The position numbers and the translations under genes were made by a program. Below are positions 41,655 to 47,140 of a stretch of DNA of 64,000 nt, piece after piece; the stretch's first letter is position 1; each line of letters opens with the position of its first letter. The notes below the pieces were generated by a model, which saw only the letters and a program-made list of their open reading frames with translations, made no database searches and was not told the DNA's origin. The stretch covers positions 1,300 to 65,299 of the forward strand of contig JBDHBD010000013.1 of NCBI GenBank assembly GCA_039587755.1, in the 5' to 3' direction. The DNA is from Gemmatimonadota bacterium (GTDB lineage: Bacteria > Gemmatimonadota > Gemmatimonadetes > Palauibacterales > Palauibacteraceae).

Positions 41655-42817
41655 CGTGCCAGAAGGACCGATTCTCACTTCCGTCCGAAGTCCACTACCT
41701 AAACTGTGCCTATATGGCGCCGCTCGCACGCAGCGTGGAGGCGGCGGGCATGGCGGCGATACAGAGGCGGCGCGACCCGTCCCAGGTGCTGCCAGCGGAT
41801 TTCTTTCGGGACTGCGATCGGCTGCGCGAGCTCTTTGCGACACTCATCGGGGCGCGCGATCCACGCCGTGTGGCGATCCTCCCCGCCGTCTCGTACGGAA
41901 TCGCGGTCGTAGCACGAAACCTCGTGCCGAGGGCGGGGCAAAACGTGGTAATCGTCGAGGACCAGTTTCCGAGCAATGTGTACGCGTGGAGAACGCTGAG
42001 CCGCCGGTGCGGCATGGACCTCCGAACCGTGACCCGCCCGGGAGCCGGACTGCCCTGCGCCGAGAAATGGAACGCACGTGTCCTCGAGGCGATCGACGCA
42101 GACACGGCCATCGTCGCCCTGCCCAACGTGCACTGGACCGACGGATCGCTGTTCGACTTGTGCCGGATCGGTGAGGAGGCGCGGTCACGCGGTGCCGCGC
42201 TCATCGTCGATGGATCTCAATCCGTGGGCGCCCTCCCACTGGACGTCGAGGAGATTCAGCCCGACGCCCTCATCTGTGCCGGCTACAAGTGGTTGTTCGG
42301 GCCCTACTCGGTTGCCCTGGGATACTTTTCGGAGAGGTTCGACGATGGCGAGCCCCTCGAGGAGACATGGATCGCCCGACACGGAAGCGAGGACTTCCAG
42401 GGGCTCGTCCAGTACAACGATTCGTACCAGCCCGGTGCGGTGCGCTACGATGTGGGCGAACGCAGCAACTTCACGCTGATGCCCATGATGGTCGCCGCAC
42501 TCGAGATGGTCCTCGAATGGCAACCGGCACGCGTCCAGGCGTACTGCCGCTCCCTGCTGGAGGACTTCGTAAAGCGGATGGGCGCGCTGGGTCTGGCCGT
42601 GGAGGCCGACGGCTGGCGGGGTGCGCACATGCTGGGGGTCCGGCTCCCCGAGCTGGCACTCGATTCGCTTCAGGAACAGCTGGCGGAGGCGGGTGTGTTC
42701 GCCTCACTGCGGGGCGATGCGCTTCGGGTGTCGGCCCACGTGTACAACGATGCGTCCGACGTGCAGGCTTTGGCCGACGTGCTGGAGGCTACCGTGCTCG
42801 CTCCGGCTACGCGCTAG
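41648..42817 (+). CDS. Aminotransferase class V-fold PLP-dependent enzyme
   Basis: Class V fold with a PLP-lysine region (…ICAGYKWLFGPYSVALGYF…) of cysteine-desulfurase / kynureninase type. Overlaps the menE stop by 7 nt. Confidence 0.7.
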   Translation: MLTCQKDRFSLPSEVHYLNCAYMAPLARSVEAAGMAAIQRRRDPSQVLPADFFRDCDRLRELFATLIGARDPRRVAILPAVSYGIAVVARNLVPRAGQNVVIVEDQFPSNVYAWRTLSRRCGMDLRTVTRPGAGLPCAEKWNARVLEAIDADTAIVALPNVHWTDGSLFDLCRIGEEARSRGAALIVDGSQSVGALPLDVEEIQPDALICAGYKWLFGPYSVALGYFSERFDDGEPLEETWIARHGSEDFQGLVQYNDSYQPGAVRYDVGERSNFTLMPMMVAALEMVLEWQPARVQAYCRSLLEDFVKRMGALGLAVEADGWRGAHMLGVRLPELALDSLQEQLAEAGVFASLRGDALRVSAHVYNDASDVQALADVLEATVLAPATR

Positions 42818-44049
42818 CCTTCGTAACCGCCCGGCCTGTCCTTCCGGCGGATCATGTAGACGACGTTATCCCGCACACGCTTCCGATATCCCAGGAGGTG
42901 AAGGACTCTAGTGGCGGAGTCGCGAGCCGCCCACGGCCGCAACACCAGGGCGTCGTCACGCGTCAGCAGCCGATCGACACCCGGGAAAAGCGGCGCGACA
43001 TGGGCGAGACCCAGTCGCCGCAGGACGGCGGAGATCTGCAGCCAGATCGTTCGCACTCGTCGTACGATGAAGAATCCGTCGTCACCCAGCTCCTGATACA
43101 ACGGCAGGAACATCCGTCCGCTCTCGGGCGCACGGACCGGACCGCTTCGGTCTCGCGCGACGACGGCTCCCTCCTGCACGGGGCGGAAGTTCTCTAATCC
43201 GGCGTCCATCGCGAAGCCGTCGTTCGGCTCGACCTCGTGACGGTGCCGCACCTCCATGACCGGAGGGAGGTGCCGGGTCGCACCCCGCAGAAACCTGTGG
43301 TACGAGTCCAGCCTGGGTACGTCGCTCGGTTGGAGATGACCCTGAGCCACCAGCGCGATCCACAGCACGGCCTCCAGCGCGTCGGCCGACTTCGGTGACG
43401 TGTGACTCCCACCTTCGACACCGAGACCCACGAGACCTCGGCGGTCCAGGTACGAGAGCAACGCCCCGTCGAGCTGCTCTTCGAGACCCAGAATGATCGG
43501 AATAGGGAAGCGTCGCGCCAGCGCTCGGTTGGTGAGCGTGTCGCCGAGGGTGACGAACGGCGCACTCTCCGCCGCCGTCGTGTGAAGATCGAGTACGTAG
43601 ACCGGCCCTCTCGCCGATTCCAGAGCTTCGTCCACCGCCAGCAGCAGCTCTTCTTGCTCGCGAGCCTCGGCACTGGCCGCAGCCACCAAGGGCGCCTCGG
43701 CGGACGGCGACCGCGGACCACGAAGCGCTCGCACTCGCTCCGGCTGCCAAATGCGGTTGAGATCCTCGTCGAGAAACCGACGGCCCGCCCGGAGAGCCGG
43801 AAGATTACCGGCCAGCGCCACAAGATCGCCGCCAAACGGAACCTGCCGTGCGTCGAGCGCGAAGATCAAGCGCCGAACCGCATGGACTCCGGCGGGTTCG
43901 TTGCCGTGCAGTCCGGCAAGGCAGAGCAGCATCGGCCCTGGCCGCTCGCCGCGCTGACGACCCAACAGCCGGGTGGTCGGCGTCTGTGTCTCGAACTGCC
44001 TACAGGTCACCTCTCCCCTGGTGGAGGTCGTCGGAAGCCCGCTAATCAC
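42814..44049 (-). CDS. Succinylglutamate desuccinylase / aspartoacylase (AstE/AspA) family zinc deacylase
   Basis: Family motifs CLAGLHGNEPAG (HGNE) and VYVLDLHTTAAES. 411 aa. Overlaps the upstream ligase gene by 8 nt. Confidence 0.7.
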   Translation of the reverse strand: MISGLPTTSTRGEVTCRQFETQTPTTRLLGRQRGERPGPMLLCLAGLHGNEPAGVHAVRRLIFALDARQVPFGGDLVALAGNLPALRAGRRFLDEDLNRIWQPERVRALRGPRSPSAEAPLVAAASAEAREQEELLLAVDEALESARGPVYVLDLHTTAAESAPFVTLGDTLTNRALARRFPIPIILGLEEQLDGALLSYLDRRGLVGLGVEGGSHTSPKSADALEAVLWIALVAQGHLQPSDVPRLDSYHRFLRGATRHLPPVMEVRHRHEVEPNDGFAMDAGLENFRPVQEGAVVARDRSGPVRAPESGRMFLPLYQELGDDGFFIVRRVRTIWLQISAVLRRLGLAHVAPLFPGVDRLLTRDDALVLRPWAARDSATRVLHLLGYRKRVRDNVVYMIRRKDRPGGYEG

Positions 44050-45955: not shown

Positions 45956-46063
45956 GCTGGATCCCGGCTTTCGATCTCGAAGCCCAACTCCTTACTACAG
46001 CGGGTATGGGCCGATCACGTTGGGACTTGCTAGACGATTCGACAAGTGCCGGCCGAGCAGGAA

Positions 46064-47140
46064 TCAGGCGCCGTGGGGCTCGAGCGCTGCTTCCAGGAAG
46101 GCTCGCGCCACCAGAGGCCAGGCGTAACGCATGGCCCGCTCTCGCCCGGCGCGCGCCAATCGCTTGCGCTGAGGCTCGTCTTCGAGAAGGCGTACCAGAG
46201 CGGCGGAAACCGCTGGAGCGGAACGGCCGTCGACCAGAAGCCCGACCTCACCATGCGGTACGACCTCCGGCACCCCGCCAAAGTCGGCGCCGACGATCGG
46301 CAGCCCGGTCGCCATCGCCTCCAGAAAAGCGATCCCGAAGCCCTCTTGCAGGCTGAGAAGACAGAAGACGGAGGCACGGCGGTACTCCTCGCGCACATCC
46401 TCGGCGCGGGGAAGGGCGCCGAGTAACTTTACGTGGCGTTCGACCCTCAGTCGACGCACCAGCTGGCGCAGACGTGGAAGCTCGGGTCCCCCACCCACGA
46501 TGCGACACTCCAGGTTCGGGACGCGTTCCAGCACGGCCGGAACCGCTTCCAGAAGCGTGCGCGTGTTCTTTCTCGGATACTGGCGGGCCACGCTGACGAC
46601 CACCGGATGGCCGGAAGGCGCCGTGTCGGCAGGACGCCAGAATTCCGGGTCGACGCCCTCGGGGACCACCCGCACTCGTGCCGGTGCGAGGCCATAGGCG
46701 GAGATGGCCGCCCGTCGACTGTACTCGCTGGTAACGAACACCCGGTCCGCTCGTCGGGCATTGCGACGCTCAAGCCGGGCTAGCGCACGAAGCTGGAGGC
46801 GCGGCAGCCCCCGCTCGAAGCGCGACTCATCGGCCAGGACCCCCTTGAGGCACACCACCAGCGGTTGGTCGCGGTCGTGCGGCAGCAGACAGCCATCGAT
46901 GTCGAAGCCGACGACCAGGTCGCGGTCGGCTTCGTGAAGCCGGCGGCGCAGCCCGGCGTTGAACGCGAGCCGCCGATATGTATGCGAGAGTGTCCTTCCG
47001 CGCGGACGAAGAACGTGTACCCGATGGCCGAGCGCGCGAATCCCCTCGGCCAGTCCGCGGATGCCGGCCGCCGACCCACTCCCGACCGCTACATCCGTGT
47101 GCCACGAGTCGACGAACGCGATGTCGAGGACCCGATTCAT
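46064..47140 (-). CDS. Glycosyltransferase family 4 (GT-B, retaining)
   Basis: GT4 C-terminal donor-binding motif EGFGIAFLEAMATGLPIVGADFGGVPEVV. N-terminal acceptor domain. Start placed at MNRVLDIAFVDSW. Confidence 0.8.
   Translation of the reverse strand: MNRVLDIAFVDSWHTDVAVGSGSAAGIRGLAEGIRALGHRVHVLRPRGRTLSHTYRRLAFNAGLRRRLHEADRDLVVGFDIDGCLLPHDRDQPLVVCLKGVLADESRFERGLPRLQLRALARLERRNARRADRVFVTSEYSRRAAISAYGLAPARVRVVPEGVDPEFWRPADTAPSGHPVVVSVARQYPRKNTRTLLEAVPAVLERVPNLECRIVGGGPELPRLRQLVRRLRVERHVKLLGALPRAEDVREEYRRASVFCLLSLQEGFGIAFLEAMATGLPIVGADFGGVPEVVPHGEVGLLVDGRSAPAVSAALVRLLEDEPQRKRLARAGRERAMRYAWPLVARAFLEAALEPHGA

Follow-up and report, generated by a model that had tools for sequence, protein, structure and literature searches.

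In Escherichia coli, glutathionylspermidine synthetase/amidase (GspSA) holds an ATP-dependent amide synthetase and a hydrolase of the same bond in a single polypeptide. Among the zinc hydrolases of the AstE/AspA superfamily, AstE, DoeB, ASPA and CphZ are all cleavers of N-acyl amino acids or isodipeptides, and YbdK, which belongs to the glutamate-cysteine ligase (GCL) fold, is itself only a weak GCL. Here we describe a pair of adjacent minus-strand genes that brings these two superfamilies together, located in a 64,000-nucleotide (nt) stretch of contig JBDHBD010000013.1 from a Gemmatimonadota bacterium of the Palauibacteraceae (positions 1,300 to 65,299, hereafter the window). The first gene (44042-45955) codes for a ligase of 637 amino acids (aa) with a C-terminal CBS pair, the second (42814-44049) for an AstE/AspA-superfamily zinc amidohydrolase of 411 aa from a GTG start. 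That the two are functionally coupled is well supported; the chemistry of the pair we infer from the families of its members.

The pair resembles GspSA, as a functional analogy only, in that synthetase and hydrolase are kept together, here as adjacent genes that are fused in some lineages. It differs from GspSA, which joins an ATP-grasp-like synthetase to a CHAP amidase, in the unrelated folds of both enzymes and in the predicted regulation by a CBS pair. A sequence-only reading of this DNA had joined the two genes with a GT4 glycosyltransferase gene just upstream (46064-47140, minus strand; 358 aa from the ATG at 47140) into one functional operon. The ORF coordinates do give three co-directional genes on the minus strand, and the linkage of ligase and hydrolase has held, but the glycosyltransferase lies outside the unit.

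Ligase and hydrolase as a recurrent gene pair

In the window, the stop codon of the ligase gene (44042-44044) lies inside the start of the hydrolase gene, whose GTG at 44049 produces an overlap of exactly the 8 nt that had been read before. An NCBI record with a 100% identical protein (P0121) has the same 411-aa hydrolase start. Another GTG at 44010, with GGGGAGAG before it, is a possible alternative start that would leave a 32-nt gap from the ligase, and the start site is best regarded as ambiguous between 44010 and 44049. For the 82%-identical relative, the start given by JGI is even later, with the loss of conserved residues.

The conservation of the pair was followed in 80 ligase loci, one genome per species, 73 of which had sufficient flanking sequence. 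The hydrolase gene was located directly downstream of the ligase gene and on the same strand in 33 of these 73 loci, which come from five or more phyla (Gemmatimonadota 8/9, Planctomycetota 13/16, Eisenbacteria 2/2, Myxococcota 4/8, Acidobacteriota 2/19). According to the gene calls, the ligase and hydrolase genes of the relatives overlap by up to 4 nt or are separated by no more than 2 nt. Both enzymes are also found on one polypeptide: three ligase-AstE fusions (P0339, P0357 and P0364) align with each other over their full length, linker included, P0386 is a further fusion of this kind, and ligase-CBS-AstE fusions are represented by P0253 and by P0278, the latter present in two independent assemblies. 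These fusions represent one lineage at minimum, plus two additional architectures. A shorter form of the ligase of about 495 aa, which lacks the CBS domains and shares 36-40% identity, occurs in marine Gammaproteobacteria including the cultured Porticoccus hydrocarbonoclasticus and Amphritea balenae. In all three sampled cases (Porticoccus, A. balenae and Halioglobus) an AstE-like gene comes next, again with an overlap of at most 4 nt or a gap of at most 2 nt; its product is strongly diverged from the hydrolase of the window. The pair in P. hydrocarbonoclasticus (L126, 4412-8621) has a stand-alone Glu_synthase gene (PF01645, flavin mononucleotide domain) directly upstream, which was not seen in Amphritea or Halioglobus.

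Taken together, the adjacency across phyla, the translational coupling and the recurrent fusion are strong evidence for a chemistry shared by the ligase and the hydrolase. A third conserved partner did not emerge from all-versus-all clustering of the ORFs of the 80 loci, which returned only the AstE-like family, lineage-specific neighbours and shadow ORFs, and the Pfam search of neighbours at ligase loci without AstE revealed nothing in common. The contexts sampled on the hydrolase side vary and include the orders pterin-4a-carbinolamine dehydratase (PCD)-GT4-photolyase-ligase-AstE (L124), MacB-ligase-AstE (L125) and PCD-AstE (L083, L123).

Family placement of the two enzymes

The Pfam searches matched all the families expected for the three proteins, namely Glycos_transf_1, GCS2, CBS and AstE_AspA_cat, and the motifs EGFGIAFLEAMATGLPIVG, HGNE and DLHT were all found. 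The ligase domain comprises residues 1-495 (44471-45955, minus strand). Its GCS2 match (1.3e-9, 38.2 bits, cut-off 21) covers residues 46-242 only. The AlphaFold2 (AF2) model, with a predicted local distance difference test (pLDDT) value of 77, has the antiparallel beta-sheet funnel and the helical C-terminal part of the GCL/YbdK fold, and match and fold together sustain the earlier assignment to the GCS2/YbdK superfamily. Since searches of the PDB sequences with the ligase domain (phmmer and a 25-sequence profile) returned only CBS matches or none, and no solved GCL, family placement needed fold comparison; hhalign alignments with a canonical GCS2 protein and with E. coli YbdK were weak and partial. 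The comparison list for the ligase gives 32.2 for the YbdK orthologue 1tt4, 26.4 for plant GCL, 25.1 for yeast GCL, 19.2 for E. coli gamma-glutamylcysteine synthetase (gamma-GCS), 19.1 for Dop, 18.0 for PafA and about 13 for glutamine synthetases. All scores against the NCBIfam models of GCL and YbdK stay below cut-off (NF010043, 23 bits versus 409; NF010041, 19 versus 332). The enzyme is a divergent member of the GCS2 superfamily, but not an orthologue of YbdK or of a bona fide GCL. It shares 10-17% identity with YbdK, plant GCL, yeast GCL and E. coli GshA, is about 120 residues longer than YbdK, and carries a C-terminal CBS pair that is absent from all matched GCL-fold structures. In contrast to GCLs, its partner is an AstE-like hydrolase and not glutathione synthetase.

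Nine residues (E48, E50, E86, N88, H193, Q195, R235, E335 and R337) are invariant in 25-30 ligase sequences from many phyla and sit on the predicted active-site strands of the AF2 model. They contain a Glu-x-Glu, Glu, His and Glu-x-Arg ligand pattern (E48/E50, E86, H193, E335/R337), which we take to correspond to the metal and phosphate ligands E27, E29, E67, H150, E328 and R330 of E. coli gamma-GCS. The ligase looks catalytically competent, and the catalytic sets of ligase and hydrolase are both complete.

The ligase family is large and highly conserved, with 8000 scored relatives, every one at E < 1e-5. A search with the ligase domain yielded 744 clusters (50% identity) at E <= 1e-30 that span Gemmatimonadota, Planctomycetota, Myxococcota, Acidobacteriota, Eisenbacteria and marine Gammaproteobacteria, and identities of 52-71% are found across Gemmatimonadota, Acidobacteriota, Planctomycetota, Myxococcota, Bradymonadales, Eisenbacteria and Wenzhouxiangella. 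Nearly all of the 120 ligase relatives listed are GCS2 + CBS proteins of approximately 637 aa; the CBS fusion, at first considered unusual, is the dominant architecture of the family.

The CBS pair, or Bateman module, follows the ligase domain at about residues 503-628 (44072-44449, minus strand) and matches Pfam CBS in two stretches (1.9e-28, 99 bits). Its closest solved counterparts are AcuB, in complexes with AMP, ADP, ATP or diadenosine tetraphosphate (Ap4A), MJ0100, with S-adenosylmethionine (SAM) or methylthioadenosine, and IMPDH. The ribose-binding motif G-h-h-T/S-x-x-D/N is present in the second of the two tandem domains as G-L-V-T-E-R-D, with the nearly invariant D622 as the ribose-binding Asp; the first domain reads G-L-V-T-R-R-T and is without the Asp motif. 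The pair probably gates the ligase via an adenosyl ligand. Two proteins of 800-806 aa, P0248 and P0392, are ligase-CBS-HIT fusions. HIT enzymes act on adenylated compounds and on dinucleotides such as Ap4A, and the fusions may be a clue to the ligand of the CBS pair or to a side product that is adenylated.

The hydrolase matches Pfam AstE_AspA_cat with 8.5e-18 and 65 bits (cut-off 25). Its catalytic domain (about residues 37-216) is followed by a beta domain and a C-terminal alpha/beta subdomain (about 334-401), the latter confidently predicted in the AF2 model (pLDDT 88) and conserved in the clade. In the family alignment H48, E51, H156, E212, R91, N98 and R99 are invariant, and in a profile alignment these residues fall on the HGNE, R..D.NR and DLHN motifs of rat ASPA, where the matching residues are the zinc ligands and the holders of the substrate alpha-carboxylate. 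Foldseek placed AstE first (1yw4, 2e-14), followed by EutE/DoeB (6twm), ASPA, ACY3 and CphZ (8eip); weaker matches were the cytosolic carboxypeptidase CCP5 and the peptidoglycan peptidases MpaA and Csd4. The domain match, the H-x-x-E ... H zinc ligands, the catalytic Glu and the fold agree with the zinc deacylase described from the HGNE and DLHT motifs. The scores nevertheless remain below the NCBIfam equivalogs TIGR03242 (AstE; 42 bits versus 306) and NF002601 (aspartoacylase; 33 versus 180), and also below NF003706 (48 versus 170). The hydrolase thus belongs to the AstE/AspA superfamily and is neither AstE proper nor aspartoacylase proper. With AstE, aspartoacylase, DoeB (EutE) and CphZ it has the fold, the zinc site, the catalytic Glu and the R...N-R carboxylate-binding motif in common, but its identity to them is 14-21%, it possesses the additional C-terminal subdomain, and its genomic partner is a GCL-fold ligase and not a gene of arginine catabolism, ectoine degradation or cyanophycin metabolism.

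As judged from these comparisons, both enzymes fall into known superfamilies and are orthologous to no characterised enzyme. Nothing was found on the ligase-hydrolase pair or on CBS-fused GCS2 proteins in the searchable literature, whose coverage does not extend to the amidoligase survey of Iyer et al. (2009). PADLOC defence-system models matched none of the three proteins.

Proposed chemistry and its alternatives

By analogy with GCL, the ligase would spend ATP on converting a carboxylate, in the simplest case the gamma-carboxyl of glutamate, into an acyl phosphate and would then couple that carboxylate to an amino acid through the alpha-amine of the latter. The compound so formed would be an N-acyl amino acid that keeps a free alpha-carboxylate, for example a gamma-glutamyl amino acid, and would thus belong to the class of compounds cleaved by AstE, ASPA, DoeB and CphZ; the free alpha-carboxylate would fit the ASPA-type binding motif of the hydrolase. 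A product such as gamma-Glu-Glu would be only one amino group apart from N-succinylglutamate. The hydrolase would break the same bond that the ligase forms, so that the pair would set the level of the compound, and the CBS pair would tie the ligase activity to an adenosyl ligand (ATP/AMP, SAM or similar), thereby averting a futile cycle. On balance, we favour the view that the two-gene cassette makes and hydrolyses one N-acyl amino acid, for which a gamma-glutamyl amino acid would be the simplest candidate. More tentatively, we suggest as one possibility that the pair is a widespread ATP-driven cycle of synthesis and hydrolysis for a metabolite new to bacteria, the level of which is tied to the energy or adenosyl-ligand status via the CBS pair. 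Such a metabolite, e.g. a gamma-glutamyl or other acyl amino acid, could serve in signalling, in nitrogen or redox buffering, or as an osmolyte.

Several points weigh against this interpretation. Synthesis plus hydrolysis is one reading of the link between the two genes, and the enzymes could also act in sequence. The residue mapping onto gamma-GCS does not derive from a computed structural alignment, and at the sequence level the ligase aligns only weakly with YbdK and GCS2 proteins. An adjacent hydrolase is missing from about half of the ligase loci overall, among them 17 of 19 in Acidobacteriota, 4/4 in Bradymonadales and 3/3 in Wenzhouxiangella, so that the ligase can act alone or has a partner encoded elsewhere. 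Some Gemmatimonadota (Candidatus Palauibacter and another metagenome-assembled genome) have a PCD-adjacent hydrolase and no adjacent ligase. In L083 (7079-8628) and L123 (4669-6233) the PCD and AstE-like genes share 4 nt, with neither GT4 nor ligase between them, which indicates that the hydrolase can persist without an adjacent ligase.

The ligase might instead be a true gamma-glutamylcysteine ligase that responds to energy charge via its CBS pair, with the AstE-like enzyme degrading gamma-Glu-Cys or a related thiol, or being only loosely related. Its fold is nearest to YbdK and bona fide GCLs, databases label the family glutamate-cysteine ligase, and gamma-Glu-Cys, an N-acylated amino acid whose carboxylate is free, would suit AstE-type chemistry. 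We nevertheless regard this as unlikely, given the negligible score against the NCBIfam GCL model and the lack of any recurrent glutathione synthetase or other thiol gene near the ligase. Moreover, contig L084 bears a canonical GCS2 protein of 424 aa (E 1e-49) alongside an AstE-like homologue, which means that a separate GCL exists at least there. This canonical protein is unrelated in sequence to the ligase, and its proximity to an AstE homologue is probably coincidental; we therefore did not retain it as a relevant pair. Also improbable is a sequential route of salvage or transacylation, in which the hydrolase would split an N-acylated precursor and the ligase would attach the amino acid or carboxylate so released to a different partner. 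Fusion and operon coupling are equally typical of consecutive steps, and a di/tripeptide transporter of the POT family just upstream of the pair in some Palauibacterales, like the Glu_synthase-domain gene in Porticoccus, could be accommodated by this scheme; these additional neighbours are, however, lineage-specific, no third gene is conserved, and nothing points to the source of an N-acylated precursor. Modification of a protein or peptide, with the ligase adding an amino acid to or through a carboxylate of the terminus or a side chain and a carboxypeptidase-like hydrolase removing it, would parallel PafA/Dop or the tubulin ligases and CCPs. The weaker matches of the hydrolase to CCP5, MpaA and Csd4 agree with this, but we consider it very unlikely because no lineage has a conserved target or tag gene beside the pair, and the structures that match the ligase and the hydrolase best are of enzymes with small-molecule substrates.

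Least of all do we credit the proposal that a single pathway made up of all three genes leads to a glycosylated conjugate of an amino acid, be it a low-molecular-weight thiol similar to bacillithiol (BshA/B/C) and mycothiol (MshA/B/C) or a glycosylated osmolyte. As in those pathways, GT4, deacylase and ligase genes are close together in the window; they are co-directional there and in the closest relatives, no terminator was detected in the spacer between GT4 and ligase, and the GT4 protein partially matches the MshA and BshA models, with MshA (3c4q, 1e-27) as its best PDB match. The model scores, however, are far below the NCBIfam cut-offs (MshA TIGR03449, 110 bits versus 462; BshA TIGR03999, 95 versus 274), and GT4 is not orthologous to either enzyme. 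The ligase is unrelated to BshC and MshC, and the hydrolase carries the AspA-type amino-acid carboxylate motif (R91, N98, R99) and not the LmbE fold of the GlcNAc deacetylases, pointing to a chemistry unlike that of MshB and BshB. The triad is not conserved and fails the synteny test set beforehand. It is syntenic only in the nearest relatives, L081/L082 (95% identical) and L001 (71%), and 78 of the 80 ligase loci are without GT4, the exceptions being L001 and L003, the latter with the order PCD-GT4-ligase and no hydrolase. In L088, GT4 is directly followed by the ligase and the contig stops before the hydrolase position. Other genes are inserted between GT4 and ligase in L124, with a class-2-type photolyase gene (1507-3048), and in L132 of the Palauibacterales (2691-5914), with the POT/PTR2 di/tripeptide transporter, a KaiC/RecA-like ATPase and a 66-aa ORF.

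The upstream glycosyltransferase and the meaning of the pair

The assignment of the first gene to the retaining GT4 glycosyltransferases stands, on the basis of its Pfam matches (Glycos_transf_1, 1.4e-40, 139 bits; Glyco_transf_4, 56 bits) and of the E-x7-E motif, present as EGFGIAFLE. If a GTG start is used, the ORF extends over 46064-47170 and encodes 368 aa. Viewed from the GT4 side, in 36 metagenomic relatives (L085-L120; 30 testable upstream and 20 downstream), the PCD gene is located directly upstream in 27/30, approximately 30 nt apart hit-to-hit, whereas the ligase follows directly in 1/20 and lies within 5 kb in 4/20, and the hydrolase was found within 5 kb in 0/20. The synteny on the GT4 side and on the ligase side thus leads to the conclusion that the window juxtaposes two modules, PCD-GT4 and ligase-AstE; the former is a separate module that happens to be located upstream of the ligase pair in some Gemmatimonadota. 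The spacer from the GT4 stop to the ligase ATG (45956-46063, minus strand), previously put at about 110 nt, measures 108 nt and may be the boundary between them. It has no Rfam match, and its minus strand is without promoter-like or terminator-like consensus; a riboswitch or other RNA was not found in the cluster.

In the window, the PCD/DCoH gene is located at 47214-47546 on the minus strand (Pfam Pterin_4a, 5.7e-31), and its product reaches 116 bits against NCBIfam NF002016 (cut-off 133). Tetrahydrobiopterin (BH4) is the substrate of the known pteridine glycosyltransferases (PGTs), which are GT-B enzymes with a length of some 360 aa (PMC4133829, PMC5683033). GT4 resembles these enzymes (BGluT/PGT) in its size of 358 aa and in nearly always following a PCD gene, but it is much nearer to MshA than to the BH4 glucosyltransferase 9v0l, to which the similarity is weak (1.3e-7 over 55 residues). 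Given this weak similarity, orthology between GT4 and the known BH4 glucosyltransferase was rejected, and pterin glycosylation by GT4 is therefore a lead that derives from the PCD context and not from family membership.

Further upstream, a GAF-GAF-GGDEF diguanylate cyclase gene (47662-49227, minus strand) precedes the PCD gene and has the same position in L081, L123 and L132. On the opposite strand, a menaquinone cluster (MenF, MenD, MenB, MenA and MenE, by synteny with the 95% relative L081) extends from about 35000 to 42817. It ends with a class-V aminotransferase-fold gene (41648-42817), whose end overlaps the end of the convergent hydrolase gene by 4 nt; this Aminotran_5 gene is likewise at the end of the men genes in the 95% relative and scores 38 bits against a kynureninase model (cut-off 246). 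A tryptophan-2,3-dioxygenase (TDO)-like gene (141 bits, cut-off 391) is confined to one Planctomycetota-like lineage, where it lies convergently just after the pair (L030, L034, L040, L043, L046-L048, L056, L059, L060 and L063); in L046 and L047 it directly follows the ligase and the hydrolase is missing. A general link of the pair to kynurenine or aromatic amino acids was rejected, as the Aminotran_5 gene is below cut-off and sited with the men genes and the TDO-like gene is lineage-restricted.

The locus illustrates that co-directional neighbours within one window may belong to separate modules. The cultured carriers Amphritea balenae, Porticoccus hydrocarbonoclasticus and Wenzhouxiangella make the question of what the pair produces directly testable. 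If the cassette indeed makes and degrades a dedicated small amide, thousands of annotations as 'glutamate--cysteine ligase' and 'succinylglutamate desuccinylase' would need correcting, and the pair would define a novel metabolite together with a novel regulated use of the GCL fold in many abundant, little-studied environmental phyla.

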